From: a virus | Taxonomy: Duplodnaviria; Caudoviricetes | DNA length: 64,000 nucleotides | Reading direction: 5' to 3' (one strand) | IMG/VR virus record: IMGVR_UViG_2767802067_000002 | Span: 47,332-111,331 of that record | Part shown: one piece after another, positions 31,684 to 48,532 of the stretch | How positions within the stretch are numbered: position 1 is the stretch's first letter | Layout of the letters: every line of letters starts with the position of its first letter | Position numbers and translations under genes: made by a program | Notes under the pieces: model-generated | What the model was told of the DNA's origin: nothing | The model's input: the letters and a program-made list of their open reading frames with translations, nothing else | Database searches by the model: none

Positions 31684-31695
31684 CCCCGGGCAGCA

Positions 31696-31736: not shown

Positions 31737-31758
31737 TCGCGACCGGCGCGGCCCGCGG

Positions 31759-32228: not shown

Positions 32229-33497
32229 TCACGCGACCTGGTCGGGGGAGGGGCCCTTGACGAGGTGCAGAATCCGGGCCATCGCGGGCTGCTCGGCGGC
32301 CGGGACGGGGGCCTCTGCGAGGGGTGCCGCGGGGGCCGGGACGGGGGCCTCTGCCGGGGGTGCCGCGGGGGCCGAGACCGGGGGCGCGGCAGGGGCCGGG
32401 GCGGGGGCCACGGGGGCGGCCGGAACGGGGGCCGGGGCGGGGGCCACGGGGGCGGCCGGAGGGGCTGCGGGGGCGGCCGGGGCGGGTGCCCCGGGGGCGG
32501 CCTGGGCGGGTGCCCCGGGGGCCGGCGGGACGGCGGCCCGAGCGGCCACCTGCTCGGGCCAGAAGGAGGTGCCGATGAGGTGCGGCCCGGGGGCGTCGGC
32601 GAACATGGCCAGACACTCCTCCGGGGACCGGCTGAGGGCGCGCTTCAAGGCGTCGATGTGGATGCCCCAGGTGTTGCCGAACCCGCGGATCTGCATCTTC
32701 TGGACGGGGATGCGGTAGCGGGCGAGGACCATGCGCAGCAGGGAGACGTCCCACCCTGGGGGCATGGCCTCGACCAGGGCGGAGAGGTGCACGCCCTTCC
32801 GGCCGGCCGCGACGGCGGCCAGGACCTCGGAGAGGGCGTGCCGCATCAGGGCCTCCTCGGCCTGCGCGAAGGTGAGGGCCGGGACCGCGGGGGAGTGGCA
32901 CTCCCCCGCCGCTTCATGATCGTTTTCGGCGTCGGCCTCCTCCTCGTCGTAGTACTCCCACTCCCCGTCCTCGTCGCCCTCCGCGTCTTCCTCGGTGTCC
33001 TCCTCCTCGGCCTCCTCCTCCTCGTCCTCCTCGGCAGCCCGGGTGCGCGGCTGGCTCAGGCTGACGCCGGCGGCGGCGAGGTACCAGGCGACGATCAGCA
33101 CGCCGATGATGTAGCCGTGCCAGGGAGTGAGGAGCGCCCAGAGGAGGCCGCCGAACGCGCCGCCGGTGCCGACCGCGGCGGCGACGCACAGCGCGGCGAT
33201 CCCCAGGCCCTCCAGGGTGTCGGCGATGGACTTCCCCTTCGCCTTCGCCTTGCCCTTTCCCTTGGCGGCCTTCGTCTTCGGCTTGCCCTCCTCCCCGTCC
33301 TCCTCCTCGGCCGGCTTGTCCTCCTGCTGCATGTTGGCCGCGGCCCGGAGCGCGCGGATCAGGAGCAGCAGGAGCAGCTTGGCCAGGACGACGGAGCCGC
33401 GGAGAACGGCGATCGGGCCGAGGGCCCGGAGGACGGCGCGGGCGTCGAGCTCGTCCTCCGGTGCAGCCTCGGTGGTGGTGGTCTCCCCCTTCGTCAT
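32229..33497 (-). CDS. membrane protein with acidic linker and Pro/Ala-rich tail (422 aa)
   Basis: About three hydrophobic segments; follows 33501 closely. Confidence 0.75.
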   Translation of the reverse strand: MTKGETTTTEAAPEDELDARAVLRALGPIAVLRGSVVLAKLLLLLLIRALRAAANMQQEDKPAEEEDGEEGKPKTKAAKGKGKAKAKGKSIADTLEGLGIAALCVAAAVGTGGAFGGLLWALLTPWHGYIIGVLIVAWYLAAAGVSLSQPRTRAAEEDEEEEAEEEDTEEDAEGDEDGEWEYYDEEEADAENDHEAAGECHSPAVPALTFAQAEEALMRHALSEVLAAVAAGRKGVHLSALVEAMPPGWDVSLLRMVLARYRIPVQKMQIRGFGNTWGIHIDALKRALSRSPEECLAMFADAPGPHLIGTSFWPEQVAARAAVPPAPGAPAQAAPGAPAPAAPAAPPAAPVAPAPAPVPAAPVAPAPAPAAPPVSAPAAPPAEAPVPAPAAPLAEAPVPAAEQPAMARILHLVKGPSPDQVA

Positions 33498-33500
33498 GGG

Positions 33501-33911
33501 TCAGCCCAGCTTTCCGGACATCTTGATGATCGCGTTCACGGCCGTGCCGCCGAGGCCACCGGCGGCTTGGGCCGAGACGGCCATGCTGATGCCGAGGACG
33601 GCAGGGACGATCATCTTCTTCCACTTGAAGCAGAGCGCGGTGATCCCGAGGCACAGGACGACGCCACCGGGCCCGACGTTGCCGACCCCGCCGTCTCCGA
33701 ACACGGAGGAGGGGATCTCGTTGACGTTGTTGGCGAAGTCCAGCCACATGCTCCCCGCGGCGATCCAGAGACTCCCGGTGACGAAGCCAAGGCCGGTAGC
33801 CGTGTCCCGCTTGAGGCTGATCCGGTCGCTACCGCGCAGTCCGGCGATGAGTGCGAGGGAGGACCCGGCGGCGAAGCCGGTGGAGGTGATCGCGCCGATC
33901 ATCTGGCTCAT
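33501..33911 (-). CDS. small multi-TM membrane protein (136 aa)
   Basis: MSQMIGAI start with GAAAGG RBS; Gly-rich hydrophobic helices. Confidence 0.75.
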   Translation of the reverse strand: MSQMIGAITSTGFAAGSSLALIAGLRGSDRISLKRDTATGLGFVTGSLWIAAGSMWLDFANNVNEIPSSVFGDGGVGNVGPGGVVLCLGITALCFKWKKMIVPAVLGISMAVSAQAAGGLGGTAVNAIIKMSGKLG

Positions 33912-33925
33912 GGTGCGGGTGCCTT

Positions 33926-35245
33926 TCAGAGGGTGGGGCCGGGGGCGTACAGGAGGGTGGCGACGGCGGCCGTGGCGAGGGGGATGCGGAGGATGAAGCG
34001 GACCAGGGCGCCGCGGTGACGGACCCTCCGGTCCACCAGGAAGTACAGGCCGCCGTTGACGATCCCGGCGGTGAGGATCAGGGAGACGGCGTTGGGGCCC
34101 AGGCCCCATTCGGTGCCGTACTGGTTGACCCAGCGGACGCCGACCGGGGCGAGGTTGCGGGCGAGCTCCCCTGCGGCGAGGGTGCCGACGAACCGGGCGA
34201 TGAACGGGTACGGGAGGACGTGCTGCACGGCCTGGTGGCCGAGGAGCTTCCACGCGCCGTACCAGCCGGCCAGGTTGAAGGCGAGGCCGAAGGTGCCGAC
34301 GATGCCGTGCTCGGCGGCGGGCATGAAGCCGGAGACGTAGTCGGAGCCGCCGACGCCGTAGCCGATCGCGGCGGCGGCGCCGTTGAACAGCACGAACCGC
34401 GTGCGCTTGTCCTTCGGCTTCCAGCTGCCGCCCGTCTTCGACTCGGACTTCGCGGCCGGGGCGGCGGGGGCGCCGGCGGTCGGGGGCTGGCTCGGCTTCG
34501 GCGGGACGGGCGCGCCCGGGGCCTGGCCTCCGTCCGGGGGCGCCGGGGTGGCGGAGGGGGCGTTCTTCGCGAACGCCTTCACCTTGACGGAGGACCACCA
34601 GGGGAAGACGGCCTCCGGCTCCTGCTGCTCCTCCTCGGGCTCCTCGTCGTCGTCCGGCTCCGGCTCCGGGGCGGGGGCGGGGGCGGGGGCGGGCTCCGGC
34701 TCGGGCTGCGGGGTCAGGTCGACGGTCTCCCCCGGGCGCGGGTACCGGCCGCCGCCGACGATGTGCCCCTCGGGAAGGTCGTACTTCTGGGTGCGCACCT
34801 CGGCGGGCGGCTCGGTGGGCTGCGCCGGGATGACCGGGGCCGGGGCCGCCGGGGGCTCCTCCTCAACGGCGGCCGGCTCGGCGGCCTCCTCTTCGGCGGG
34901 CTGAGCCGGGACCGCGGGCAACTCGGCGGGCTGAGCCGGGACCGCGGGCAACTCGGCGGGCTGCGCCGGGATGGCCGGGGCCGCCGAGGGCTCGGGGTCG
35001 ACCACGATCATCGGGCCGAAGGCGTCGCCGACGGCGTCGTGGAAGGCGTCCGTCGCGTCGGCCGCCACCATGCTGGTCAGCAGGGCATCGACCTCGATCG
35101 GGACGGCCCGGGCCGTCCCGACGGCCTGCTCGACGACCGTAGCCGCAGCCTCGACGACGGCCAGGTCCGCGGCGGCGTCCGCCGCGTCGTCCTCGGCCAT
35201 CCCGGCGAGCAGGTCGTTCACGTCGCTGGGCGGGGTGGCGCTCAT
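33926..35245 (-). CDS. Pro/Glu-rich protein with C-terminal multi-TM domain (439 aa)
   Basis: PAQPAELPAV repeats; 4-5 hydrophobic helices at C-terminus. Confidence 0.75.
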   Translation of the reverse strand: MSATPPSDVNDLLAGMAEDDAADAAADLAVVEAAATVVEQAVGTARAVPIEVDALLTSMVAADATDAFHDAVGDAFGPMIVVDPEPSAAPAIPAQPAELPAVPAQPAELPAVPAQPAEEEAAEPAAVEEEPPAAPAPVIPAQPTEPPAEVRTQKYDLPEGHIVGGGRYPRPGETVDLTPQPEPEPAPAPAPAPEPEPDDDEEPEEEQQEPEAVFPWWSSVKVKAFAKNAPSATPAPPDGGQAPGAPVPPKPSQPPTAGAPAAPAAKSESKTGGSWKPKDKRTRFVLFNGAAAAIGYGVGGSDYVSGFMPAAEHGIVGTFGLAFNLAGWYGAWKLLGHQAVQHVLPYPFIARFVGTLAAGELARNLAPVGVRWVNQYGTEWGLGPNAVSLILTAGIVNGGLYFLVDRRVRHRGALVRFILRIPLATAAVATLLYAPGPTL

Positions 35246-36414
35246 GCCGTCTTGCTCCTCTTCTTCGGAGTCGGGTTCTCGATCCGGCGGCGGGTGCGCG
35301 GCACGGTCTCGGCGTAGGTCCGGCTGGGGCCGTGGACGCTGGCGACGTGCGCGATCAGGTCGTCGTCGCTGATGGCCGGGTTGACCGCGAGGGCGGCGCG
35401 GATGGTAGCCGCGACGGACGGGGTCCCGCCGACGGCCTGGAGGGGCGGTGCGGCCGGGGCCGGCTGCGGCGCGGGCGCGGCCGGGGCGGGCGGGGCCGCC
35501 GGAGCGGCGGGCGCGGCCGGGGCAGCGACCGAAGCGACCGGCGCCGGAACCTGCGCGGCCGGAACGGGCGGAACGGGCGGGGCGGGCGGCGCGGGCACCG
35601 GAGCCGGAGCGGCGGGCGCCGCCGGTGCCGGGATGGCCGGTGCCGGGACGGGCTGGAGCTCGGGCTGCGCCGGGATCGGCGCGGCCTCGAGTACCGCCGG
35701 TGCGGCAGCCGGGAGCTCCGGCGCCGGGGCGGGCCGGGGCGGCTCGATGGCCCGCGCGGCCTCCGGGCCGTAGACCGCGGCCAGGTACGCCTGGACGCCG
35801 TCGAGGCGCTGCTGCTCCCCCAGCACGACCCGGTTGACGGCCAGCTCCTCGCGCTTCTGCTGGAGGAAGGAAGCGGCGCCCTCACCGAGCGGCACCGCGA
35901 ACATCCGCATCACCACCAGCCACATCCCCTTCGCGAGGATGCTGACGCCGCCGCCGATCACCCCGGCCGCGACCTTCTCCTTGCCCACGCCGTGGGTGAT
36001 GACCGAGGCGACGACGACCGCCAGCGCGAGGAAGCCGCCGACCATCGCCGGCTTCGCACGCGCAGGGTCGTAGCGCAGCAGCCACTCGATCACCTGGAGA
36101 CCGATCCACGTCAGCTCGAAGAGAGCCGCCGCGCCGTAGGCGATCCAAGGCGTCACCACCCCGGACAACTGGTCGCCGATGCTCGCCGTCGACCAGGCCA
36201 CCGACACGGCGGTCATACCGACCGCGAGGCCGACGACCGCCCGCAGCCCGATCGCGTCGAAGTTGCGCGGCGGTACCGGCTCCCACTCCTGGTAGGTCTG
36301 CGGGGTGAGCCGGGTCTCGCCGCCGATCGTCGTCTCGACCATCCGCTGCCGGGTCACCAAGCGGTACTTCACGCCAGGGACGCGGGGCTGCTCGGTCGGG
36401 GTCTCGGTCGTCAT
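35242..36414 (-). CDS. SpdB2/DUF2637-like membrane protein (4 TM, Pro-rich linker, C-terminal helical domain)
   Basis: SVAWSTASIG...AYGAAALFELTW...GGGVSILAKGMW architecture. Confidence 0.6.
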   Translation of the reverse strand: MTTETPTEQPRVPGVKYRLVTRQRMVETTIGGETRLTPQTYQEWEPVPPRNFDAIGLRAVVGLAVGMTAVSVAWSTASIGDQLSGVVTPWIAYGAAALFELTWIGLQVIEWLLRYDPARAKPAMVGGFLALAVVVASVITHGVGKEKVAAGVIGGGVSILAKGMWLVVMRMFAVPLGEGAASFLQQKREELAVNRVVLGEQQRLDGVQAYLAAVYGPEAARAIEPPRPAPAPELPAAAPAVLEAAPIPAQPELQPVPAPAIPAPAAPAAPAPVPAPPAPPVPPVPAAQVPAPVASVAAPAAPAAPAAPPAPAAPAPQPAPAAPPLQAVGGTPSVAATIRAALAVNPAISDDDLIAHVASVHGPSRTYAETVPRTRRRIENPTPKKRSKTA

Positions 36415-36507
36415 GCTGCTGCGCCCTTCGCGCTCGGTCCTACAGGGTGCGGCCGGGCCCACGGGGGTGGGCCCGGCCGGTGAACAGGGCGGGCAGGCCG
36501 GGAAGCG

Positions 36508-36729
36508 CTACCGGCCGCCGAAGCGGCGCTGCTCGCCCGCCTGGTGCGCCGCGCGACCCGCGCGGTCCGCCGCGCCGACCGCCTTGGAGCGGCGCCGGTT
36601 CTCCTTGGTCTCCCGCGCCTGGCGCTTCTCGCGGTCCTTCCGGGTGGCCCGGTCGGAGGCGGACTCACGGCCGGAGTAGGCGGTGGCCGCGGTCTCGCCG
36701 TCGTTGCCGCCGAACAGCCAGTCGAGCAT
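36508..36729 (-). CDS. small basic protein (73 aa)
   Basis: YSGRESASDRA; TGATG coupling with the upstream gene. Confidence 0.7.
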   Translation of the reverse strand: MLDWLFGGNDGETAATAYSGRESASDRATRKDREKRQARETKENRRRSKAVGAADRAGRAAHQAGEQRRFGGR

Positions 36730-36887
36730 CAGAGACCCACCGATCCGGCGGCCTCGTTGCCGTGGCTCTGCGCGCCAGCGAGCTGATCGCGCGCGTCCAC
36801 CGACCGCTGCTCGCGCTGCTCAGGGGTGCCGTACGCCTGACGGGCGAGCTCGTGCTCGCGGGCCGCGCCCTCGGTGATGTCCGCCAT
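36729..36887 (-). CDS. small protein (52 aa)
   Basis: MADITEGAARE; TGATG coupling on both sides. Confidence 0.6.
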   Translation of the reverse strand: MADITEGAAREHELARQAYGTPEQREQRSVDARDQLAGAQSHGNEAAGSVGL

Positions 36888-37336
36888 CAGGCCGCCACCT
36901 CCGCGCGCGGGCCCTTCGAGCCACCGGGGGCGGGCTGGTCCTTCGGACCGCGCGGGCCCTCCGCCAAGTCCTCCGGGCCCTTCGCCGGCTGCTCCTTGCG
37001 CGGGTGCGGGAACCCGGGGATCGACGGGATCACCGGCTCGTTGTCCGCCTCGGTCCACTCGTAGCCGGCCGCGCGGGCCGCCTTGAGGAGAACCAGCGCG
37101 TACTCGCCGCGGGTGATGCCGCCCGTGATCTCCGGGAGGAGACGGAGGGCGATCTGCGCGAGCAGCCCGGCCTCCGCCTCGGCGTCGACCGCCTTGTACG
37201 CCTCGGCGAACAGCAGGCCGTACACCGAGCCGCCCAGCGCGGCACCCGGGTACGCGGTGCGCAGCGTCTCGGCGACGCGCGCCAGAACGGCACCGGCCGC
37301 CTCTTCGGGGGGCGTGATCACATCGGTAAGGTTCAT
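36887..37336 (-). CDS. hypothetical protein (149 aa)
   Basis: AGGAG RBS; first gene of the membrane operon. Confidence 0.75.
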   Translation of the reverse strand: MNLTDVITPPEEAAGAVLARVAETLRTAYPGAALGGSVYGLLFAEAYKAVDAEAEAGLLAQIALRLLPEITGGITRGEYALVLLKAARAAGYEWTEADNEPVIPSIPGFPHPRKEQPAKGPEDLAEGPRGPKDQPAPGGSKGPRAEVAA

Positions 37337-37376
37337 GCGTCTGCTCCTGGTGACTCAGGGGTGGACGTCCCGGCCC

Positions 37377-37471
37377 GTGTGCAACCACGGGGCGGGGTTG
37401 TTAGGCGCTGCCCGGTGTGCAACCACCGGGCAGCGTCGTTTTCAGCGACCCTGGCCTCCGTGTGCAACCAC
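37377..37471. repeat. three direct repeats GTGTGCAACCAC in a divergent intergenic region
   Basis: Copies near 37377, 37415 and 37460. Confidence 0.85.
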
Positions 37472-37551
37472 GTCGGCCGGGGTGACCGCTGATGAGTACG
37501 AGACTACCCACCTGCTTGCGCTGGCGCAAGCAGGTCTGAGAGGATGGAGCC

Positions 37552-37869
37552 GTGTCCGACTCCCCGAACGAGCGTCAAGCCGGGGCCGAAGAGGCGCAGT
37601 TGAAGCTCTGCACCATCCCGGAGATGCCCGATCTCCTGGCGGAGGCCGGTCTCAAGCGCCTGACCGAGGCGCGCATCCGGCAGCTTGCCGCCACCCCCGA
37701 GTTCCCTGGCCCCGTCTGGGAGCGGGGCAACCTGCGCCTGTTCAACTGGCCCCCAGTGCTCGAGTACTTCCGCGAGCGCAAGCTGCGCCCCGGGGAGCGG
37801 ACTGACCTCAAGCGAGATCAGGAGGCTCCCCCCAGCGATGAGCACCACGACAAGGCAGGACCCCAGTAG
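37552..37869 (+). CDS. AlpA/MerR-like HTH protein (105 aa)
   Basis: LTEARIRQLAATPEFPGPV...RLFNWPPVLEYF. Confidence 0.72.
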   Translation: MSDSPNERQAGAEEAQLKLCTIPEMPDLLAEAGLKRLTEARIRQLAATPEFPGPVWERGNLRLFNWPPVLEYFRERKLRPGERTDLKRDQEAPPSDEHHDKAGPQ

Positions 37870-38467
37870 CGAGACGAGGCGCGCGGCGGTGTACCGGCTG
37901 TACGCCGCCGACGGCGCGCTGCTCTACATCGGCTCCTCGTACGACCCCGAAGGACGCTGCAAGGGCCACCAGCGCACAGCGTGGTGGCCCTTGGTCGAGC
38001 GCCGCACGGACGAGTGGTACGACAGCCGTGACATCGCGTACGGGGAGGAGCGCCGCGCGATCAAGGAGGAGAACCCGGCGTACAACTTCGCCTGCACCGA
38101 CCAGCACACCGGCCCGGCGCAGGTCCAGGTCGTGCGCCAGGCCGGGGCCGCCGAGGAAGAGGCGCAGCGCTTCATGGCCGCCGTAGAAGTCCTCAAGCAG
38201 ATGAAGGACCCGGCGGCGCAGGCACGCGCCATCACCCAGGTCTTGCAGGCCCAGCCCGGCGCAGTGAAGGCCCTCAAGGGGATTCGGCGCGAGTACGTCC
38301 TCAGGCAGCGCGCCGCCAAGATCACGTTCCGGGCCATCGCGGCCGACCTCGGCGTCTCCGTCGGCACCGTCCAGGACATCGTGCGCGGCTACTCCGGCTC
38401 GTACCAGGACCGGCCCCGCACGGGGGCCGGGAAGGTGTCGGCGTCCGAGACGCCGCCGTCCAAGTAG
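37838..38467 (+). CDS. GIY-YIG domain plus C-terminal HTH protein (209 aa)
   Basis: AVYRLYAADGALLYIGSS...R...E...ENPAYN; TFRAIAADLGVSVGTVQDIVRG. Confidence 0.82.
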   Translation: MSTTTRQDPSSETRRAAVYRLYAADGALLYIGSSYDPEGRCKGHQRTAWWPLVERRTDEWYDSRDIAYGEERRAIKEENPAYNFACTDQHTGPAQVQVVRQAGAAEEEAQRFMAAVEVLKQMKDPAAQARAITQVLQAQPGAVKALKGIRREYVLRQRAAKITFRAIAADLGVSVGTVQDIVRGYSGSYQDRPRTGAGKVSASETPPSK

Positions 38468-38567
38468 TTCACCACCTCGGCGGCGTCGACGCCGCCCGGC
38501 GCGGCCCCGGCATGCCCAGTGGCCGCTACCCTCTGCACCCACCTCAGCACAGAGAGCAGGTTCCACC

Positions 38568-39071
38568 ATGCGCAGGATCACCGCCGCGGTGCTCGCGGCC
38601 GCCGTCTCCGTCGGTCTGCTGGCCGGCTGCAACGGCGCGAAGCCGAGCAAGTCGAAGCCGTCGTCGTCCGCGTCGAAGAAGGCGAAGCCGGCGCCGTCGA
38701 AGTCGAAGGCGAAGTCGAAGGCGAAGTCGAAGGCGAAGCGGGCGTTCAAGCCCGGGGAGGTCGGCGATGACGACGGGTTCGCCTCGGTGGTGTCGGCCGG
38801 GTACCAGGATCATGCGGTGTGGGGGGCGCACGCCTACGTCGTGCAGTGGTCGATCACGTCGACGGACGACGACACCGAGTCGTACATGGCGAAGCTGACG
38901 TTCGCCGATCGGGACGGGAACACGCTCGGCAGCACGGCCGTGACCGCCTTGGACTTGGCGGCGGGTGCGACCGCGGAGGGCGAGACGGCGCCGCTGGGTG
39001 CGGAGATCCAGTCGGGCCGGGCCGGGGACATCGTCTCGGTGCGGGTGACGCACATCGAGGAGCTGACCTGA
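38568..39071 (+). CDS. lipoprotein
   Basis: Signal peptide with LAGC lipobox, Lys/Ser linker, beta-rich domain. Confidence 0.8.
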   Translation: MRRITAAVLAAAVSVGLLAGCNGAKPSKSKPSSSASKKAKPAPSKSKAKSKAKSKAKRAFKPGEVGDDDGFASVVSAGYQDHAVWGAHAYVVQWSITSTDDDTESYMAKLTFADRDGNTLGSTAVTALDLAAGATAEGETAPLGAEIQSGRAGDIVSVRVTHIEELT

Positions 39072-39382
39072 CGTGGATGTCGACTGGGTGGAGGTGGTCT
39101 GTGCTGGCCGGCGGCGGGTGCTGTCCGGTGCGTCTGGTGAGGCGGTGGACGAGGTAGCGGCGCTGGTGCAGGGCCTTGCTGGTGGTCGCGGCCCGGGCGG
39201 CGTGGACGGCCGCCCGGGCGGTACGGCCCAACCGGCTGGGGAGAGTACCTGATCCGGCCGTCCATGCATTCGAGAGTGGCCCCTGCCCTTCTGGGCGGGG
39301 GCCACTGGCGTTTCCGTCGCGGGGTGTCCGCGCTGGTCGGGGCGGGCTCCGGGTGTGCTGGGCGGCCCTAGACTGATCACTC

Positions 39383-39919
39383 ATGAGCAATGACCGGGAC
39401 GCCCTGCTGGCGCAGATCAAGGACAAGGCCGTCGTGCACGGCAAGGTCACCCTCTCCTCCGGCCTGGAGGCTGATTACTACGTGGACCTGCGCCGGATCA
39501 CGCTGGACGCGGAGGCGGCGCCGCTGGTCGGCAAGGTGATGTTGGACGCGGCGGCGGACCTGGAGTTCGACGCGGTGGGCGGGCTGACTCTGGGCGCGGA
39601 CCCGGTGGCGGCGGCGATGCTGCACGCGGCGGCGGCGCGCGGTCGGAAGCTGGACGCGTTCGTGGTGCGGAAGGCGGGCAAGGCGCACGGGTTGCAGCGC
39701 CGGATCGAGGGCCCGGACGTGAAGGGCCGCCGGGTGCTGGCGGTGGAGGACACCTCGACGACCGGCGGTTCGGTGCTGACCGCGGTGGAGGCGCTGCGCG
39801 AGGCGGGCGCCGAGGTGGTGGGTGTCGCGGTGATCGTGGAGCGCGGCGCGGCCCCGGCGATCGCCGAGACGGGCCTGCCGTACGTGACCGCGTACACCTT
39901 GGACGACCTGGGGCTGTGA
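39383..39919 (+). CDS. pyrE: orotate phosphoribosyltransferase
   Basis: VTLSSG..DYYVDLR, VVRKAGKAHG, PRPP loop VLAVEDTSTTGGS; TAGACT -10 near ATG. Confidence 0.95.
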   Translation: MSNDRDALLAQIKDKAVVHGKVTLSSGLEADYYVDLRRITLDAEAAPLVGKVMLDAAADLEFDAVGGLTLGADPVAAAMLHAAAARGRKLDAFVVRKAGKAHGLQRRIEGPDVKGRRVLAVEDTSTTGGSVLTAVEALREAGAEVVGVAVIVERGAAPAIAETGLPYVTAYTLDDLGL

Positions 39920-40000
39920 GCCCGGGTCGGCGGCCCCCTCCCCTTCCGGGGTGGGGGCCGCTGTCGTGTCCGGACACTGTCCGGACGGTGTCCGTGCTGG

Positions 40001-40480
40001 TCAGGCGCGGTGTCCGGGCCCGGCGGCGACGGCGGCGGCGAGGGCGATCCATCCCTTGTGCCACGCCTGGTCGAGGAGGGCTCCGGCGCGGTGGTCGCGG
40101 GTGAGCCATCCGCCCTTCCCCGCGCGGTGGGCGGCGCGGACGAGCAGCGGGGCGTCGGGGCCGGTCTCGGCCCAGTGCCCGGCGCAGCGGTCGGCGGCGT
40201 AGTGCGTGAGCGCCGAGACGGCCAGGCCGGCGGCGGCCCGGGCCGGGCTGATGCCGAGGCCGAGGTAGCGGTTCGCGGCCCAGAGGGCGAGCGCCTGGGT
40301 GGCGGTGTAGCTGGCGACGTGGCGTGCGCAGGCGGCGGCGCCGGCCGGGCCGCGGTGGCCCTTCGCGGCGGCGTCCTCGTCCCGCTGGACCAGGTAGTCA
40401 CCGATCTCGTGGGCGGCGGTCAGGGCGGCGTACGCGGCGGCGGCGCGGGTGGCCGCGGTGGTGGTGGGCTGGGCGGGCAT
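40001..40480 (-). CDS. DUF3307-like membrane protein
   Basis: AHEIGDYLVQ...AKG...HVASY...HYAAD...DQAWH. Confidence 0.75.
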   Translation of the reverse strand: MPAQPTTTAATRAAAAYAALTAAHEIGDYLVQRDEDAAAKGHRGPAGAAACARHVASYTATQALALWAANRYLGLGISPARAAAGLAVSALTHYAADRCAGHWAETGPDAPLLVRAAHRAGKGGWLTRDHRAGALLDQAWHKGWIALAAAVAAGPGHRA

Positions 40481-40673
40481 GGTGGCTCCTTCGAGCTGAC
40501 GTGTCATCAGTTTCCCGGCTGCTGCCGGGTGGTGGTGCCCAGTGCTGGGCGCTGGGGGCGTGGCGGGGCTCACGCGGAGTTGGGCCGGGCTTCTGCGGCA
40601 GATGGCGCAGAAGCGGCCTTGACTCGTGACGGCGGGTCAGGGAGATTGGCCGTAGCGTGATCACTTCTTGCTC

Positions 40674-40757
40674 GGGCGAGTGGCGGAACCGGCAGACGCA
40701 GCGACCTTAAAAGTCGCGGCCGCTCGCGGCGTGTGGGTTCGACTCCCACCTCGCTCA
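40674..40757 (+). tRNA. tRNA-Leu (anticodon TAA), bldA-type specificity
   Basis: Acceptor GGGCGAG/CTCGCTC plus A73; anticodon arm GCGAC-CTTAAAA-GTCGC; long variable arm GCCGC-TC-GCGGC; T-arm GTGGG-TTCGACT-CCCAC. Confidence 0.93.
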
Positions 40758-40774
40758 CGGCTCCCGGAAACGGT

Positions 40775-40812
40775 GAGAGGCCCCCGCAGGCGGCGGGGGC
40801 CTCTCGCTTTTT
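40775..40812 (+). terminator. intrinsic terminator after tRNA-Leu
   Basis: GAGAGGCCCCCGC/GCGGGGGCCTCTC stem followed by a T run. Confidence 0.8.
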
Positions 40813-40860
40813 GGTGCCGCTGACCTGCGGCTTTGTAGGGGCGGTTCTACTTTTGGGCCC

Positions 40861-41451
40861 TCATTTGAGGGGGTTCCAGCCGGGTGGCGGGGGCGGGGTG
40901 CTGGTCTGGGCGACGACCATCAGGGCGTGCGGGCCGACCGGCGGGCCGTCGCCGTGCGGGCCGGTGCCCCAGGTGTTCGTCGCGATGGTGCGGCAGTGGA
41001 GCAGCAGGCGGTCCGGGTTGGGGACCAGCTCCACTTCGTGGGTGAGGCCGGGGAAGAGGAGGTGCGTCCACGCGCCCCGGGTGGTGGAGGGCAGCCACAT
41101 CTCGGCGGCGATGAGGCGGACCGCGGGCGGGATGCCGGGGGCGGTGTCGGTGACGCAGGCCGCGAGGAGGCGGGTGCCGTCGGCGGTGGGGAGCGGGATG
41201 CGCAGCGCGGTCATGCGCTGGCCGGCGAGCGGGCGGCCGAGCTGGTCGTAGCTGCCGGAGAGGTGCGCGGCGTCCGGGGGGACGGACCGGCCGCGGATCG
41301 TCCACGGGTCGCTGCCCGGCGTGGAGAACGGCTCCCTGGGCGGCGCGTGGAAGGTGAAGGCGGGCGGGGCGTCGGGCTGGAGGACGGTCAGGCGCAGGGC
41401 GTCCGGCCGGAAGTGGAGCGGCGTCTCCTCCTCGTCGGTGGGGTGGGTCAT
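40861..41451 (-). CDS. hypothetical protein (196 aa), paralog of the middle domain of 41448-42983
   Basis: RPxAxRxTVL...PFxTPxxDPW...DGxRLL...ExWxP...GxWxH. Confidence 0.72.
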   Translation of the reverse strand: MTHPTDEEETPLHFRPDALRLTVLQPDAPPAFTFHAPPREPFSTPGSDPWTIRGRSVPPDAAHLSGSYDQLGRPLAGQRMTALRIPLPTADGTRLLAACVTDTAPGIPPAVRLIAAEMWLPSTTRGAWTHLLFPGLTHEVELVPNPDRLLLHCRTIATNTWGTGPHGDGPPVGPHALMVVAQTSTPPPPPGWNPLK

Positions 41452-42983
41452 TCGAACCCTCCTGTGGTGTCGCAGGCCGACGGGCCGGCGTCGTGGGCGG
41501 GTGCCGGGTCGCACGCGGGCGGGACGGCCTCGGTGGGCCCGGCGATCAGGTCGACGGGGATCTCCAAGGCGGCGGCAAACGCGGCGGCGAGCTGTCGGCG
41601 GCGGGTCTCGTCCTCGAGTCCGCTGGTGTTGATCACGATGTCCGGACACTGTCCGCCGCCGTGTCCGCCGGTGTCCGGACACCGGTTGTCCGCCGTGTCC
41701 GGGCGGCAGGTGTCCGGGCAGTCCGGGCCCGCGTCCGGACACGGTTGTCCGGGCGGTGTCCGGGCGGTGTCCGCCCTGGTCGGGAACGTGCAGCCGGTCC
41801 CGCCCTCGCCGATCACGGGCAGGCTGCGGACATGTCCGCCGGTGGCGTGTCCGGTGTCCGGGCGGGTGTCCGTGGCCGACGGGATCGCGGCCGCCACGGT
41901 GGTCAGCGGCCCCGTGCGGGGGCCGACCGGTGCCGAGCACTGGAACCGCATCAGGTCGTCGTCGATCTCCGGTCCGGACGGGCCGGAGAGCCCGCCGAAC
42001 GTCGCGTGGACCCACTCGCCGGGCAGCTCGGCGGGAGCCCAGAGCTCCACGCTGACCATCCGCATCTTCGGCGGGTAGTCGGCGCCGGGGACGGTGCACA
42101 TGTCCAGCAGGCGCAGGCCGTCGTCGACCGGGAGGGCGATGTCGAGGACCACCGTCATGTCGCCGGCCGTCGGTGCGGGCCGGGTGAAGGCGTCGGCCGG
42201 GGCCCGGGTGACGACACGGCCCGCGGTCGCCCACGGGTCGGTCTCCGGCGTGGTGAACGGGTCGGGCTCCGGGAGGTGGACGACGAGGGCGGTCGTCGGC
42301 GAGCCGTCGGTGCCGAGGACGGTCACCCGGACAGCGGTCGGCCGGTGTCGGAACGGGAGCCGGAGCGCTCCGTTGTCCCGGCGCTGCGTCCGGACGGTGT
42401 CCGCCCTGGTCGCGGGCAGGGCGCGGGCGTGTCCGCCGGGGGCGTGTCCGGCTGTCCGGACGCTGTCCGCCGCCGTGTCCGGACGCGGCGGCTTCGCGTA
42501 CGAGGACTGGTAGCCGAGGGCGACGAGCGCGGCGTCGACGGCGTGCCAGATCAGGCTGTTGCGGGCGACGCCGTGAACGGCGCCGGAGGCGTCGCGGGGC
42601 AGCGTGCCGATCATGGCGAAGACCGCGTCCCACGCCGGCTGGCGCGGGTCCTGGCCGCGCGCGGAGATCGTGGCGGCGCTCGGGCCGGTGCGGCGGACGG
42701 GCTCGACGGCCTGGGCGAGGACGTCGAGCGCGGCTTCGGCTTCCCGGCGCCTGCGGGACGGGACGCCGGTGTCGCAGCACGCCTCCCGGCCCCAGGCGAA
42801 CCGATCGGGGTCGAGGCGGGCGCCGTGGTAGCGGCAGGCGGCGGGCAGGTCGCCGAGGGCCTGGCGCAGCAGCGGCATGGCGTGCCGGGTGCAGGCCGCC
42901 GCCGCCTCGGCGGATTCCAGCCGGTCGTAGAGCTCGTCGAGCTGGTCGCTGGTGAGGTCGTCGAGCGGGATGCGGCCGGTCAT
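41448..42983 (-). CDS. hypothetical multi-domain protein (511 aa)
   Basis: MTGRIPLDDLTSDQLDELYD start; ATGA coupling. Confidence 0.7.
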   Translation of the reverse strand: MTGRIPLDDLTSDQLDELYDRLESAEAAAACTRHAMPLLRQALGDLPAACRYHGARLDPDRFAWGREACCDTGVPSRRRREAEAALDVLAQAVEPVRRTGPSAATISARGQDPRQPAWDAVFAMIGTLPRDASGAVHGVARNSLIWHAVDAALVALGYQSSYAKPPRPDTAADSVRTAGHAPGGHARALPATRADTVRTQRRDNGALRLPFRHRPTAVRVTVLGTDGSPTTALVVHLPEPDPFTTPETDPWATAGRVVTRAPADAFTRPAPTAGDMTVVLDIALPVDDGLRLLDMCTVPGADYPPKMRMVSVELWAPAELPGEWVHATFGGLSGPSGPEIDDDLMRFQCSAPVGPRTGPLTTVAAAIPSATDTRPDTGHATGGHVRSLPVIGEGGTGCTFPTRADTARTPPGQPCPDAGPDCPDTCRPDTADNRCPDTGGHGGGQCPDIVINTSGLEDETRRRQLAAAFAAALEIPVDLIAGPTEAVPPACDPAPAHDAGPSACDTTGGFE

Positions 42984-43615
42984 GCGGTCGCCGCCGGGCG
43001 GAGGTGGACGATGGCGTGCGCCAGGAGGACGTCGGCGGTGTCGGCGAGGGTGCTCCGGCCTTCCACGTACATGTCCGGCAGGACCACGCCCAGGATCTTG
43101 GCGACGTCCTCGCGGGTGGCCCGGGTCGGCCAGCCTCCGGCCGGGGGCTCGCTGTCCCACCGCGGGTAGATGTCGGCCTGGGCGATGAGCCGGCCCGCGA
43201 GGTCCCGGTGGTGGGCCGGGTCCAGGCGGTCCGCCTCCGGGCAGCGCTCCAGCATGGCGAGGACGTCCTCCTCGATGGCCGGGGGCCGCTCGATCGCGGG
43301 CGTGATGAGCAGCGGCACCGGGATGGCGTCCGGGTGGGCGAGGAGCTGGGCGACCTGGTCGGCGGGGTCGGCCAGGGCCTCGTCCCAGCGGTAGTCGCAG
43401 CGGGAGCAGCAGCGCTCCAGGCGTTCGGGCAGGGGGCCGCGCTGGTCGGTGCGGCCGTTGAACTCGGAGCGCTGCCGGGGCAGGGGCGGCCGGTAGTAGG
43501 TCAGGGCTCCGGCCCAGCGGCACTTCGGGCAGGGCGGCTCGTCGCCGCTGAACGGCGGCAGCGGCACGGCGGCCTGGTCGGCGCGGTCCGGCGCGGTGAG
43601 GAGGATCTGTTCCAC
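42980..43615 (-). CDS. Zn-ribbon protein (211 aa)
   Basis: CPKC...LERCCSRCDYRW. Confidence 0.75.
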   Translation of the reverse strand: MEQILLTAPDRADQAAVPLPPFSGDEPPCPKCRWAGALTYYRPPLPRQRSEFNGRTDQRGPLPERLERCCSRCDYRWDEALADPADQVAQLLAHPDAIPVPLLITPAIERPPAIEEDVLAMLERCPEADRLDPAHHRDLAGRLIAQADIYPRWDSEPPAGGWPTRATREDVAKILGVVLPDMYVEGRSTLADTADVLLAHAIVHLRPAATA

Positions 43616-43669
43616 GGGGTTCTCCTTGCGGGGTGGGCCCGGCCGCGGTGCGCGGCCGGGCTCGGGTGG

Positions 43670-43894
43670 TCAGTTGTCGGTGAGGGTGACGCCGTTGCGG
43701 GCGAACGCCCGGACCACGGCGGGGTGGTCGGCGAAGTGGGCCAGCGAGTCGTACTCGGTGTCCCAGTCCTCTTCGCGCAGCACGCCGATCACCTGGGCGA
43801 GGACGTCCTCCGTGCGCTTGGGCTCGGCGCCGGTGTCCACCAGGAGCCGGGCGATCGGGTCGAAGAGCTTGGGTCCGGCGGAGCTCCATCCCAT
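43670..43894 (-). CDS. hypothetical protein (74 aa)
   Basis: MGWSSAG...EEDWDT; GGAGG RBS. Confidence 0.75.
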   Translation of the reverse strand: MGWSSAGPKLFDPIARLLVDTGAEPKRTEDVLAQVIGVLREEDWDTEYDSLAHFADHPAVVRAFARNGVTLTDN

Positions 43895-43897
43895 GGG

Positions 43898-44239
43898 TCA
43901 GCCCTCCATGGGGGTGTGGACGGACTCCCGCAGGTGGCGGGCGGCGAACTGGACGGCGTCGCGGACCTCGCGGCTGGTCCACTCCTCGGGGCCGACCTTC
44001 CCCTCGCGCATCGCCTGGGCGACCTCGTCCATGTGGTCGGCGTTGGCCGGGGTGACGTACCGCCAGATCGCGGCGGCGGCGGCGCCCCAGGCGCGCTGGA
44101 TGGCCTCGGGGAGGTCGCCCCAGGCGGGCATCGGGTCGCCGAGGAAGTTCCGGCCGCCGGTGGCGTTGCCGTAGGCGGCGTAGGCGAGCGCGGCGGCCGT
44201 CGCGAGGTCGGCGGGGACGGGCTGGGCGGTGTCGGTCAC
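43898..44239 (-). CDS. hypothetical protein (113 aa)
   Basis: AYAAYG...MPAWGDLPEAIQRAW. Confidence 0.75.
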   Translation of the reverse strand: MTDTAQPVPADLATAAALAYAAYGNATGGRNFLGDPMPAWGDLPEAIQRAWGAAAAAIWRYVTPANADHMDEVAQAMREGKVGPEEWTSREVRDAVQFAARHLRESVHTPMEG

Positions 44240-44242
44240 GGG

Positions 44243-44806
44243 TCAGTTCTCCTTGAGGGCGGTGTCGATGGCGTGGCGGGCGTCCCACTGGGCGTCTTCC
44301 ATGCCGCGGGTGTACTGGTAGTTGCCGGGGTCGAGCTGCCGGTGGCGGGCGTCCCGCTCGTCCTCGGTCTCGCCGGGGTGCTGGTCGAGGGCGCGCACGG
44401 CGGCGACGGCGGCCCGCAGGCGGGCGTTCTCGGCTTCCGCGGTGGCGGCGCGGCGGGCCTGGTGCCCGACGTTGTCCCGGGTGGTCAGGGCGCGGCGCTT
44501 CCACCGGGCGGCCTGCTTGAGGACCGCGGTGATCTCGCGGCGGTGGCGGTGGTAGGTGTCCAGCAGCCGGCCGTTGTGGCGCAGGAGGCGTTCGGTGCGG
44601 CCGTCGGGGTCCGGGTTCTGGCGGTCGGTGAGGTAGCCGTCGCGGTCGAGGGCGGCGAGGGCGTAGTGGAGCAGGTCGCGCAGGTCCGGGATGCCGTCGG
44701 TGGCGTCGAGGGCGTCGGCGGCGCCGGTCACGGCGGAGTCGAGGGCGCCGTCGGGCAGCTCCGGCAGGGGCGGTGCGGCGTGGTCGAGGGTGCTGGGGCG
44801 GGTCAT
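44243..44806 (-). CDS. hypothetical coiled-coil protein (187 aa)
   Basis: ATGA coupling; AAGGAG RBS. Confidence 0.7.
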   Translation of the reverse strand: MTRPSTLDHAAPPLPELPDGALDSAVTGAADALDATDGIPDLRDLLHYALAALDRDGYLTDRQNPDPDGRTERLLRHNGRLLDTYHRHRREITAVLKQAARWKRRALTTRDNVGHQARRAATAEAENARLRAAVAAVRALDQHPGETEDERDARHRQLDPGNYQYTRGMEDAQWDARHAIDTALKEN

Positions 44807-45108
44807 CCGGAGTTCTCCTTGGCGGTCATGACCGGGCAGTCGTGGTCGTGGAGGGTGCCGCAGCTGGTCCACCAGCGCTCGCAGGCGCAGGAGCGGGCCA
44901 TGAGGGAGGCCACCAGCAGGTCGAGGTTCAGCTGTTCGGGGATGCGGGGGCGGCGTCCGTTGGTGGCCATGCGCGGCTTCGGGCGGGCGGGCGGCCGTTG
45001 GGGGATGGCGTACCGGCCGAGGGCGAAGAACAGCCAGCCGGCGGCGCGGTGCGCGGCGGCGAGCAGGAGTCGGGGAAGGGCCGCTGCGGCGCGGGTGAGG
45101 GCGTTCAC
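44803..45108 (-). CDS. hypothetical protein (101 aa)
   Basis: GTGA coupling; SCACERWWTSCGTLHDHDC. Confidence 0.65.
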   Translation of the reverse strand: MNALTRAAAALPRLLLAAAHRAAGWLFFALGRYAIPQRPPARPKPRMATNGRRPRIPEQLNLDLLVASLMARSCACERWWTSCGTLHDHDCPVMTAKENSG

Positions 45109-45533
45109 GGGGCGACGGCCGCGGCCAGGCCGTTGCGGGCGGCGGCCTCGTGGATGAGGCGGGCCAGGTTCAGCGTGTGGACGTTCTCCCGGGCGGCGAG
45201 CCAGTCGCGGCGGCGGGTCTCGTCGTGGGGGAAGGTCGCGGCGACGCCGGCGACGGCCGCCTGGTAGGCGTTCAGCTCGTCGTCGAGCATCGCGGCGACC
45301 GCGAGGCCGAAGTCCGGGTTGGCGAGGGCGAGGTAGGGCAGGTCGACGTCCTCGCCCGGCTGGTCGGCGGAGCGGTCGGCGACGATGTTGCCGTTCTCGG
45401 CGTACAGGACGTCGCCCTGGTCGGCGGGCCCGGTGCGGTCGATGGCCCACGGGGTCGGCGCGGGCACCTTCGCGGCGCGTGCGGCGGCGCGGAGCAGGTC
45501 GGCGGCGGAGGCGATGCTGTCGGCGTAGTCCAC
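45105..45533 (-). CDS. hypothetical protein (142 aa)
   Basis: GTG with GAAGGG RBS; TPW...YLALANP motif. Confidence 0.7.
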   Translation of the reverse strand: MDYADSIASAADLLRAAARAAKVPAPTPWAIDRTGPADQGDVLYAENGNIVADRSADQPGEDVDLPYLALANPDFGLAVAAMLDDELNAYQAAVAGVAATFPHDETRRRDWLAARENVHTLNLARLIHEAAARNGLAAAVAP

Positions 45534-45593
45534 GGTGTGGTTCCCTTCGTGCGGGGCGGCCACCGCCCGGTGCGGGCGGTGGCCGCATGGGGG

Positions 45594-46286
45594 TCAGGAC
45601 GGGTCGGCGGCCGGGGCGGGCTCGGTGCCGGGGGTGAGGGCTTCGCGGCAGGCGCGGCACAGCGGGTGCTTGGCGTCGTGCTCGGCGGAGATCGGGCCGG
45701 TGGCCGGCACGCGGCAGACAGTGAGGCCGTCGTCCTCCAGGACGTGCTTGGTCTGGGGGAAGGCGGCGGTGGCGTCGTGGACACGCATCCGCTCGGGGGC
45801 GGGCTCGGGCAGGTACGCGAGGACCACGAGCGGCCTCTCGCCGGAGCCGTCGCAGCGGCGGCCGTACAGGTCCGGGCGGTGGACGGGGAGCCGGCCGCGC
45901 TTCGTCAGGTGAAATCCCTGGGTCGGGCCCATCGGGCAGCGGTCCCCCTCGGGGCAGACCCCGAGGCCGACGAACGCCGGGTAGTCGGTGAACCCGGCCT
46001 CCATCATCGTGCGGATCCTGGCCCGCTCGATCTCGCCGCGGTCCGGCCCAGGCAGGGGCGGGAACTGGAGGACGGGGGTGCCGTAGGCGGCCAGCCGCTC
46101 GCGGGCCTCGGCTAGGAGCGTGGTCAGCAGGTCCACCTCGGCGAGGAGCTTGACGGCGTGGACGTCGGCGACGCGCATCCCGGCGGCGAACCGCTCCCCA
46201 CCGGCGGGGACGCCGGTCCACTTCCCGGAGACCGCGAGTTCCACGTCGGCGCGGATCGCGGCCAGTTCTTCGGCGGTGAGTCCCAT
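45594..46286 (-). CDS. hypothetical protein (230 aa), Cys/His motifs
   Basis: TGATG coupling. Confidence 0.72.
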   Translation of the reverse strand: MGLTAEELAAIRADVELAVSGKWTGVPAGGERFAAGMRVADVHAVKLLAEVDLLTTLLAEARERLAAYGTPVLQFPPLPGPDRGEIERARIRTMMEAGFTDYPAFVGLGVCPEGDRCPMGPTQGFHLTKRGRLPVHRPDLYGRRCDGSGERPLVVLAYLPEPAPERMRVHDATAAFPQTKHVLEDDGLTVCRVPATGPISAEHDAKHPLCRACREALTPGTEPAPAADPS

Positions 46287-46489
46287 CAGCTCTCACCTCG
46301 GGCGGCGGCAGTGGTGACGTCGACCAGGGCGGCGACGAACGCCTGCAGTCCGGTGGCGGGGATCACGATGCCCGCCGGGGTGGTTGTGACGCGGACACCG
46401 GGGCCCATGCCGGTGTCCGGGACGGGGGCGAGGCCGATGGTGCCCCCGTCGGGGCCGGTGCAGGACCAGTCCGGGACGAGGCCGCTCAC
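46286..46489 (-). CDS. hypothetical protein (67 aa)
   Basis: GTGA coupling; resembles the repeats of 46486-46992. Confidence 0.62.
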   Translation of the reverse strand: MSGLVPDWSCTGPDGGTIGLAPVPDTGMGPGVRVTTTPAGIVIPATGLQAFVAALVDVTTAAARGES

Positions 46490-46992
46490 CGGGCACCGCC
46501 CTGGTGCTGCTCGGCGGCGCGGGCGGTGGTGAGGAGCCAGCCGGTGACGAGGGGCAGGGCCGCGAGCGGGATCGAGCAGCCCGCGGGGCTCGTGACGACG
46601 TGGACGGCCGGGGTGCCGTCCGGGAGCGCGGACCACTTCATGCGGACGACGTCCTTGTCCGCGTCCACGTAGTGGTACCCGGTGAGCTTGCTGTACGGGC
46701 CGGGCTCCGGCTCGCCGATCTCCACCGGTCCGTGCTCGTCGGCGCCGGTGGCGCTCTGGCCGACGGTGCGCAGCTCGCGGACGAACCAGCCCGCGGCTTC
46801 GGCGGGGATCAGGCAGCCGGCCTTGCGGGTGACGATGTGGATGCCGGGGCCGAGGGCGGGGATCACGGCGGTGAACACCGCCAGCTTGTCGCCGTTGGCG
46901 TCGGTGTAGGCGTAGGCGGGCCCGCCGGTTCGGGGCGGGATGACGGCGATCAGTTCGGTGGTGCGGCCTTCGCCGTCGGTGACGCGGATCAT
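46486..46992 (-). CDS. hypothetical protein with two internal repeats (168 aa)
   Basis: YxDAxxD...PxxHxVT..AGCxIP occurs twice. Confidence 0.72.
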   Translation of the reverse strand: MIRVTDGEGRTTELIAVIPPRTGGPAYAYTDANGDKLAVFTAVIPALGPGIHIVTRKAGCLIPAEAAGWFVRELRTVGQSATGADEHGPVEIGEPEPGPYSKLTGYHYVDADKDVVRMKWSALPDGTPAVHVVTSPAGCSIPLAALPLVTGWLLTTARAAEQHQGGAR

Positions 46993-47063
46993 GCGGTGCT
47001 CCGGGGTCGTGTGGTTGGCTGGGCGGGCGCCCGCCCCGGTTCGGTCGGGGCGGGCTGCCTCGT

Positions 47064-47903
47064 TCACGGGGTGGCGGGCTGGACGAGGAAGACGCGGTCG
47101 TGGCTGATCCAGACCTCGTCGCCCGGGCCGGGGCGCAGGCTGCCCGCGCTACCGGTGGTGCAGCGGACCTTCACCCGGTCCTTGCCGAGCTTGATGACGG
47201 GGCCGAGGATCGTGGCCTGGTAGCGGCCGGACGTGGTCCCGCCGACGGTGTCGCCCTCGTATCCGGTGCGGCCCGCGGCGTCCCGGAAGGACGGCCGGGG
47301 CGCGGGCTCCGAGGTGACGGGGAGCCGGTGCATGTGTTCCTTGCAGTCGGCGCAGCGGCGGCTCTGCCAGCGCTGCCCGTCTTCCTCGTACTCGGAGGTG
47401 ATCTCCCACGACTCGTGGGGGCACGGGAGCTCCGCGCCGATCTCCTTGGCGTACTGGGCGAGGAGGGCGGCGGCCCACTCGCGGGCGTCCTCCGGGTGCG
47501 CGCCGGTCTCCTCGTAGAGGTCGACGAGGCGCTGCACCGCGGTACGGTCCGCGGCCTGCTCCTCGGGGTCCTCGTAGTGCGCCTCGACGGGCCGCCACGC
47601 GGTGACGACGATCGGGACCTCCTCGACCTCGACGGCGGTGACGGTGTCGCCGGTCCAGCCGTGGTTCTCCGGTGCGCCGCCGCCGACCTCGAAGTCCCCG
47701 AGGTCCAGCTCGGCCTCGTAGGTGACGGTGTAGGTCCGGTTGTCGCCGTCGGCGTCGCGGAACACCACGGCGCGCTCCTGGCTGTACTTGAGCGTGTAGA
47801 GCTTCTGGTCGTCGAGGATGACGTCGCCGTCGATGTCGTCCGGGCTGCCGGGCGGGACGCCGAGGGCGCCGAGCTCGGCGTGGGTGAACTCTCGGGTGAT
47901 CAC
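47064..47903 (-). CDS. hypothetical multi-domain protein (279 aa)
   Basis: GTGA coupling; GAGGA RBS. Confidence 0.72.
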   Translation of the reverse strand: MITREFTHAELGALGVPPGSPDDIDGDVILDDQKLYTLKYSQERAVVFRDADGDNRTYTVTYEAELDLGDFEVGGGAPENHGWTGDTVTAVEVEEVPIVVTAWRPVEAHYEDPEEQAADRTAVQRLVDLYEETGAHPEDAREWAAALLAQYAKEIGAELPCPHESWEITSEYEEDGQRWQSRRCADCKEHMHRLPVTSEPAPRPSFRDAAGRTGYEGDTVGGTTSGRYQATILGPVIKLGKDRVKVRCTTGSAGSLRPGPGDEVWISHDRVFLVQPATP

Positions 47904-48118
47904 GGTTGGTTGTCCTCTCGGTCGGGGTGCTGCTCGGGCTGGCAGGGCGGCGTCTTGTCGCCCTGGAGGGTGTTCCAGGACTGCTCGCCGCGGGTCCACT
48001 CGGTCCACCACTGGCGGCCGTAGGGGTTCGGGCGGCGGATGGCCAGCAAGTCGCAGGCACCGCAACGCTTGCGGTGGCTGCCGACCTCGGCCCAGCGGTG
48101 GCGGGTCGCGGCGGTCAC
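47900..48118 (-). CDS. small Cys-containing protein (72 aa)
   Basis: HRW...CGACDL...TPPC; GTGA coupling. Confidence 0.65.
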   Translation of the reverse strand: MTAATRHRWAEVGSHRKRCGACDLLAIRRPNPYGRQWWTEWTRGEQSWNTLQGDKTPPCQPEQHPDREDNQP

Positions 48119-48507
48119 CGGCCGGCCGCCGGGGAGGTGCAACCACGTCCGGTCTTCTGGCAGGTGCGGGCGGCGAGCAGGACGTCGCCGGCGGCCACCC
48201 ACTCCTGGTAGCGGGCCTCGTCGGAGGGGCGCCGCTCGTCCTCGTCGATCGCCTCCAGCCGGCGGAGGGCTTCGCCGCCGATCAGGTCGGCGCCCTCGGC
48301 GAGGATCGCGTCGCGGAACGCGACGTCCTCCGGGCGTTCGGGGGCGGTGACGGTCGGGGCGGGCGGTGCGGTGGGCTCGGGCCAGCCGAGGACGTCGCGG
48401 ATCTCGTACGCCGAGTAGCGCTGCTCGGAGACGAGGCGGCCGTTCTCCCAGGTCTGGCCGGCGGCGAGGAGCGCGGCGAGGGCGTTCAGCCGGTTTTCGG
48501 TGGTCAT
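48115..48507 (-). CDS. hypothetical protein (130 aa)
   Basis: AAGGGAG RBS. Confidence 0.7.
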   Translation of the reverse strand: MTTENRLNALAALLAAGQTWENGRLVSEQRYSAYEIRDVLGWPEPTAPPAPTVTAPERPEDVAFRDAILAEGADLIGGEALRRLEAIDEDERRPSDEARYQEWVAAGDVLLAARTCQKTGRGCTSPAAGR

Positions 48508-48532
48508 CTTCGTGGTCTCCCTTGGTGGTTGG

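Follow-up and report, generated by a model that had tools for sequence, protein, structure and literature searches.

Why would a temperate phage whose own genes scarcely use the leucine codon UUA carry a tRNA gene that reads it? The question is raised by a tRNA-Leu(UAA) gene within a stretch of 64,000 nucleotides of Kitasatospora DNA (hereafter the window; C11:229640-293639 of an 8.78-Mb, 253-contig assembly). The chromosomal tRNA with the same anticodon, bldA, is the classic tRNA switch for development and antibiotic production in Streptomycetaceae. We found that the phage has entered the host chromosome at bldA itself, a link that the earlier note on this DNA had not anticipated, and we consider it the most likely reading, at about even odds, that the phage gene is expressed, reads UUA, and safeguards or adds to bldA function in lysogens of a phage that integrates at bldA.

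The window is one part of a prophage of ~115.7 kb (C11:178055-293729; Table 1). The host is placed in Kitasatospora by the names found in the protein cluster of the flanking ABC-ATPase. Its G+C content is 70–77%, genes were called by third-position G+C, and nearly all of them fall on the minus strand. PHROG and Pfam comparisons identified RecE-like and RecT-like proteins, RusA, an exonuclease, and HNH endonucleases, as well as DNA methyltransferases, a ParB-like protein, a PAPS-reductase-like protein, and a Mom-like DAM/GNAT fusion. The large terminase and the long virion-type genes are on the same contig, beyond the left end of the window. The best match of the terminase among 50,697 phage records, to Saccharomonospora phage PIS 136, reaches 46% identity, and the phage is thus without a sequenced close relative. 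In the plus-strand block of Table 1, the PyrE-like gene at 39383-39919 (+) scores 122.7 bits with TIGR00336 (cut-off 106.8).

Some further elements were noted in the window. A second tRNA-like gene at 1983-2056 (-) (Rfam, 49.9 bits), to which ARAGORN gives a four-base "anticodon" tcca, lies just upstream of the gene of the Mom-like DAM-like/GNAT fusion (420-1778). Two motifs, GTGCCTACCCACTAAG-like and TTGA(C/G)CTAACCCA(T/G)TT-like, recur intergenically among the small early genes (~7006, 14216, 14886, 20306, 21218, and 24990; and ~9258, 11637, 28914, and 31060) and are candidate phage promoters or operators. On the minus strand, at 40498-40510, is a copy of a ATGATGACAC-type motif; it precedes the tRNA by ~165 nt and falls in the divergent intergenic region between the tRNA and the gene at 40001-40480 (-).

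Table 1. Features of the prophage discussed in the text; plain numbers are window positions
Feature	Position	Strand	Basis and remarks
Integrase-proximal 64 kb of the prophage (early, replication, and DNA-modification genes)	1..64000	-	PHROG, Pfam
Plus-strand block: GIY-YIG/HTH protein, unknown protein, PyrE-like orotate phosphoribosyltransferase	37889..39919	+	Pfam, NCBIfam; co-oriented with the tRNA, context only
Candidate own promoter of the tRNA, TTGACT-N17-GAGATT	40620..40648	+	By-eye reading, weak match; ends ~25 nt 5' of the tRNA
tRNA-Leu(UAA), complete class II, CCA not encoded	40674..40758	+	ARAGORN, Rfam RF00005
Intrinsic terminator, 16-pair hairpin (12 G-C) and T-run	40772..40813 (40772-40808 in the terminator scan)	+	Terminator scan; 14 nt 3' of the tRNA
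Tyrosine integrase, 647 aa	62057..64000	-	PF00589, PHROG integrase families; start codon is the window's final three bases
RsbA-like gene, outside the window near the far prophage end	L024:4116-4676 = C11:186116-186676	-	Gene call

The tRNA gene is intact. ARAGORN called it as tRNA-Leu(taa), one of two tRNA genes called in the window, and its RF00005 score of 51.8 bits compares with a gathering score of 29. In the ARAGORN cloverleaf, the acceptor stem has 7 bp (GGGCGAG/CTCGCTC, with one G.U), the D stem 3 bp with a GG loop, the anticodon stem 5 bp with the loop CU-UAA-AA, the variable-arm stem 4 bp, as expected of class II, and the T stem 5 bp with a GTTCGA loop; all 24 stem pairs are intact. 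The cloverleaf, the long variable arm, the T-loop, the 7-nt anticodon loop, and the discriminator A73 by which a class-II tRNA-Leu is recognized are all present, A73 being the main leucine identity nucleotide in bacteria. A sigma-70 consensus scan accepted no promoter.

Much of what the earlier note had read from the letters was reproduced here. ARAGORN, RF00005, and the terminator scan agree with its description of a complete type II tRNA with a UAA anticodon and its own terminator; the orientation against the lytic genes is seen in the flanking phage genes (40861-60524), which are on the minus strand, with the tRNA on the plus strand; the gene is phage-borne, being internal to the prophage; and the difference from canonical bldA that it named is substantial, with 59 identical positions in a 90-column alignment to Kitasatospora bldA (66%). 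The two tRNAs are alike in their anticodon, the anticodon loop CUUAAAA, the class-II architecture, and A73, but their acceptor stems differ (GGGCGAG in the phage tRNA, GCCCGGA in bldA). Unlike bldA, the phage gene is also off the syntenic locus and on the opposite strand: the native bldA locus at C11:293754 adjoins attL downstream of an ABC-ATPase gene, whereas the phage tRNA lies 23.4 kb inside the prophage. Taken as a candidate orthologue, the phage tRNA thus agrees with bldA in the anticodon UAA but not in sequence or synteny. The other leucine tRNAs of the host are at most 72% identical to it, and the range of 66–72% rules out both a duplicated host bldA and a mutated host Leu isoacceptor. 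An att remnant, an objection that had been foreseen, is ruled out as well, as the gene is complete, distant from attL, on the strand opposite to bldA, and unrelated to the 24-nt att core.

Where the gene came from is suggested by its nearest sequences. These come from metagenomic contigs of 61–65% G+C and are tRNA-Leu(UAA) genes, found with a degenerate acceptor-stem pattern that returned cellular-looking tRNAs only, at no more than 82% identity. They have the acceptor, D, and T arms in common with the phage tRNA, and in the anticodon stem both bases are changed in three of the five pairs, with the pairing kept. Exact-word scans for the phage tRNA in IMG/VR and in metagenomes gave no match, sequenced phages yielded no related tRNA at more than 80% identity, and BLAST detected no orthologue in 40 relatives, 4 related-integrase genomes, or 400 genomes from the phylum. 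As no relative was found in another phage, prophage, or viral contig, conservation is unusable as support for a role of the gene. By its sequence, the phage tRNA looks like an ordinary cellular tRNA-Leu(UAA) that was captured from another lineage and retained intact.

Such an origin brings up the reading that the gene is an inert passenger, taken from another high-G+C bacterium or left from an ancestor with a short core, and without a present role. Its uniqueness to this prophage among the genomes and phage collections searched, the cellular tRNAs of other lineages as its nearest relatives, and the GIY-YIG/HTH gene nearby would all fit. Decay should, however, leave defects, whereas the stems, loop sizes, and A73 are intact and the terminator is perfect, and we consider a relic quite improbable.

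Additional UUA decoders in other genomes are rare but recurring. A pattern search of other genomes revealed a second class-II tRNA-Leu(UAA) in another Kitasatospora, in DNA poor in high-G+C3 genes (G098:C14, L079:7984-8068), and, in a further genome, a type-I tRNA of 79 nt whose anticodon is UAA, surrounded by small phage-like genes (G138:C1, L078:7982-8060). The same search returned a chance match in G392 and a low-GC contaminant tRNA array in G019.

To whom would a UUA decoder be of use? The earlier reading had noticed no TTA codon in the called genes, and the count agrees with this: in-frame TTA codons number zero in the called genes of the window and one in the 33,250 codons of the whole prophage. 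The sole case is codon 176 of the 186-aa RsbA-like (anti-sigma regulatory) gene. In the host, the same gene caller gave 49 TTA in 2.27 million codons, distributed over 48 genes, a lower bound since the caller disfavours genes with low G+C3. A host gene with DJ-1-like and AraC-HTH domains and an AdpA-type N-terminus has TTA as codon 219, within the linker between the domains; PMC10732093 describes a UUA at that interdomain place in adpA of many Streptomyces species. With one TTA in the prophage and at least 48 TTA genes in the host, the phage has no need of its own for the tRNA, and the need for a UUA decoder is the host's.

A use during infection can also be imagined. Counter-defense is a known role for some phage tRNAs, as described in PMC10264068, and a nuclease-resistant stand-in for host tRNA-Leu(UAA), cut by an anticodon nuclease during infection, would be consistent with a tRNA body strongly different from that of host bldA. 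Yet the anticodon loop is the same as the host's and the phage has in essence no UUA codons to translate, so we regard this role as extremely improbable.

Two further observations on codons and tRNAs were made. UUA-triggered ribosome hops in the prophage were considered and rejected: among 27 coding-strand TTA triplets, one is in frame and none is found at a split gene. The host assembly contains a cluster of short, 74–77-nt tRNAs that are not of class II (C13:90398-91012 and C57:12071-12146), labeled Leu(CAG), Leu(GAG), and Leu(CAA) by ARAGORN; a class-II tRNA-Leu(CAA) was not found among its 104 tRNA calls, despite 5,706 TTG codons.

The prophage attachment site is bldA. For reference, we took the locus of a complete relative (G008) with a canonical bldA, GCCCGGATGGTGGAAC..., and compared it with the host genome using BLAST. 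The upstream flank matches C11:297739-293753 and the downstream flank C11:176911-173059, and the final 24–25 nt of bldA are present twice, at C11:293753-293730 and 178054-178030. The host thus contains a 115.7-kb insertion bounded by direct repeats of tRNA positions 51–74. In the eleven nearest relatives, the two flanks are contiguous around an identical intact bldA, and G008, G166, G180, and G083 have the flanks contiguous around an intact bldA. Of the 166 other Kitasatospora genomes, 158 have bldA as one copy. The att core, the 24 nt of the bldA 3' end at C11:293730-293753, lies 91–114 nt past the window end. The integrase gene starts 91 nt inside the right repeat, on the side where the host upstream flank adjoins it, and the host downstream flank and the native bldA terminator are just outside the left repeat. 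The four nearest integrase homologues (43–58% identity), from Streptomyces althioticus JCM 4344 and three Streptomycetaceae genomes, each follow an intact tRNA-Leu(taa) at a distance of ~100 nt, indicating that this integrase clade targets bldA. No second bldA-like gene was found in these four bldA-integrating elements. Our literature search found no report of bldA as attB.

The identity of the attachment site bears on the idea put forward in the earlier note, that the tRNA manipulates the host by means unconnected with att: a constitutive or phage-timed UUA decoder would uncouple TTA genes from development, either in the lysogen or on infection of young hyphae, with adpA and pathway regulators as targets. 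A gene with its own terminator that runs opposite to the lytic genes has the layout of a "moron" accessory gene, and the idea is further consistent with a phage that has no TTA demand and a host AdpA-type gene that retains its TTA. It nevertheless leaves the coincidence of attB and bldA unexplained, and the searches revealed no conserved family of phage tRNAs of this kind; in this form, we regard it as unlikely. Lysogenic conversion of development and secondary metabolism by the phage tRNA is, as far as sequence can suggest, plausible.

Integration into tRNA genes is well known from elements of the pSAM2, SLP1, and mycobacteriophage L5 type, in which the tRNA 3' end serves as attB. We know of no such element that carries a complete cognate tRNA. 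The Kitasatospora prophage has the same arrangement of tRNA, int, element, and direct repeat of the tRNA 3' end as these elements and as the reconstructing phages of PMC10865867 (Table 2 therein), and it resembles the pSAM2/SLP1/L5 type also in that int starts ~90–100 nt after the tRNA. In tRNA-dependent lysogeny, described for temperate actinophages, attB is in a single-copy tRNA gene, the core measures 8–17 bp, and the tRNA is not rebuilt; the cognate tRNA of the phage (Fionnbharth, LeBron, Gaia, and others) replaces the host gene and is required for lysogeny (PMC10865867). In the set of Guerrero-Bustamante & Hatfull (2024), the carriage of a cognate tRNA coincides almost perfectly with non-reconstruction, and rebuilding phages carry none (PMC10865867).

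Our prophage is like the tRNA-dependent phages in having a tyrosine integrase (PF00589), an attB in a single-copy host tRNA gene, and a tRNA with the cognate anticodon elsewhere in the phage. It is unlike them in its core, which at 24 bp is identical to the host sequence and predicts reconstruction, and in its target: the host tRNA is essential in their case, whereas bldA is a developmental regulator, dispensable for growth, as established for S. coelicolor (PMC2000904). Furthermore, the known cases concern Mycobacterium and Gordonia hosts, phages of ~40–80 kb, and other integrase families. Given the long core, the dispensable target, and the lack of a spare in related elements, we describe the prophage as working like tRNA-dependent lysogeny and do not file it as a shown member. 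As in the codon-compensating tRNA sets of large lytic phages, the phage tRNA serves a host-rare codon; unlike in those, it is a single tRNA, and the phage that carries it is temperate and avoids the codon in its own genes.

Whether the tRNA is a spare or a replacement depends on the state of bldA at attL. As deposited, the assembly runs from the host flank (...ggctcagggtgg) straight into the core; 11 nt of leader and bldA nucleotides 1–59 are missing, and BLAST found the 5' part of bldA in none of the 253 contigs. On the side of the reads, we used Logan contigs of SRR7783879, the probable source run, which cover the whole stretch and are identical to the assembly over 3.1 kb. The two disagree at attL by ~70 nt (L041:3526-3560 = C11:293724-293758, ~90–120 nt past the window end). 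An 871-nt Logan contig of chromosomal depth, 78, runs from the host flank to "tgg" and on through 66 letters absent from the assembly and 34 nt of the core region. Its spacing from "ggctcaggg" to the core is 73 nt, the same as in G180, where it consists of a 14-nt leader from tgg and bldA 1–59. The additional ~70 nt has the size of the intact bldA 5' part, whose canonical sequence, GCCCGGATGG...GTGC, precedes the core in intact bldA.

The phage-side Logan contig (L064), with 2,398 nt identical to the assembly, has the first base of the core as its own first base. In a k=31 graph, a contig beginning at the core implies different bases just before the core on the attL and attP paths, and canonical bldA indeed has C there and attP has G; the Logan alignment table, at odds with the C/G difference, lists no mismatch there. 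The right edge of the "deletion" in the assembly is a graph node boundary. Most contig ends of the deposited assembly overlap by 99 nt, which points to a k=99 de Bruijn product. We conclude that the truncation probably arose in assembly or polishing, as an error at a three-way junction, and that bldA is probably intact in the strain; a real truncation, at least in the sequenced isolate, is possible but on the unlikely side. That the phage gene might be the host's only bldA, a possibility that the earlier note had set against its own proposal, is thus literally true of the deposited assembly, because native bldA is truncated at attL and not because the phage gene is native; the truncation itself is contradicted by the read-derived contigs.

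The same data speak of the state of the phage. Depth is 182 on the phage side and 78 on the host side (window 62000-64000, L041:2900-4300), and a 36-nt Logan contig represents an exact attP-type junction (CCTCGG-type left arm, core, and TTAGCT). It follows that the phage is there in surplus copies, whether as excised, replicating DNA or as a tandem array, and the depth suggests that it is active. Depth and the attP-type contig come from one run, probably the assembly's own source, and are not independent support.

If the truncation were real, host bldA would have been destroyed at attL, the phage tRNA would be the sole UUA decoder, and development would depend on the prophage. The assembly as deposited speaks for this, with its host flank joined to the att core and no bldA 5' part; ARAGORN and a pattern search detected no tRNA-Leu(UAA) in it other than the phage gene, and where 163 of the other 166 Kitasatospora genomes have a 20-nt canonical bldA word, the host assembly has the phage variant only. 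Moreover, phages that integrate without reconstruction are characterized by a cognate tRNA of their own (PMC10865867). On the other hand, the Logan contigs have the ~70 nt more at attL at chromosomal depth, the phage-side contig starts where a canonical bldA would make it start, and a deletion edge that falls on a node boundary is expected of an artefact and unlikely for a random deletion. Recombination by the integrase within a 24-bp identical core, besides, cannot remove the 5' part of the gene. Full replacement of bldA by the phage gene is therefore rather unlikely in our view.

The reading that we prefer, a phage tRNA that secures or supplements bldA, can be laid out as follows. The phage brings a cognate, non-homologous copy of the tRNA whose gene it enters, most likely as a functional gene that is its own transcription unit. 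Once expressed from the prophage and aminoacylated, the tRNA would decode UUA, and the TTA-containing adpA-like gene and other TTA genes would be translated, leading to development and sporulation. In this way, bldA function would be secured whether or not the attL copy of bldA is intact or correctly expressed, a role other than phage codon usage. Several points count against a back-up role. The core at positions 51–74 is identical in attP and attB, so that integration should rebuild a normal bldA and a spare should not be needed; with bldA dispensable for growth, selection for a back-up is expected to be weaker than for an essential tRNA; the four related elements have no spare; and the consensus scan gave no promoter.

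The locus also offers material for experiments: the ~250-bp tRNA cassette is a candidate for bldA complementation, and the integrase, together with its att site, might be made into a tool for integration at bldA. Should the truncation prove true, native bldA would be dead at attL, and a cured strain would be bald, non-sporulating, and non-producing. This would be a tRNA-based addiction that hands developmental control to the prophage, and the first tRNA-dependent lysogeny on a regulatory, non-essential tRNA; as stated for full replacement, we think it rather unlikely that a master developmental tRNA has been truncated and replaced in this manner. With bldA intact or not, a phage that enters bldA with a UUA decoder of its own, differently built and separately transcribed, could set whether and when AdpA-type TTA regulators are translated. 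It would link sporulation and secondary metabolism to prophage carriage, and the connection between an attB tRNA and a cognate phage tRNA would be extended to a further family of hosts, to a phage of far greater size, and to a regulatory tRNA that is not essential.
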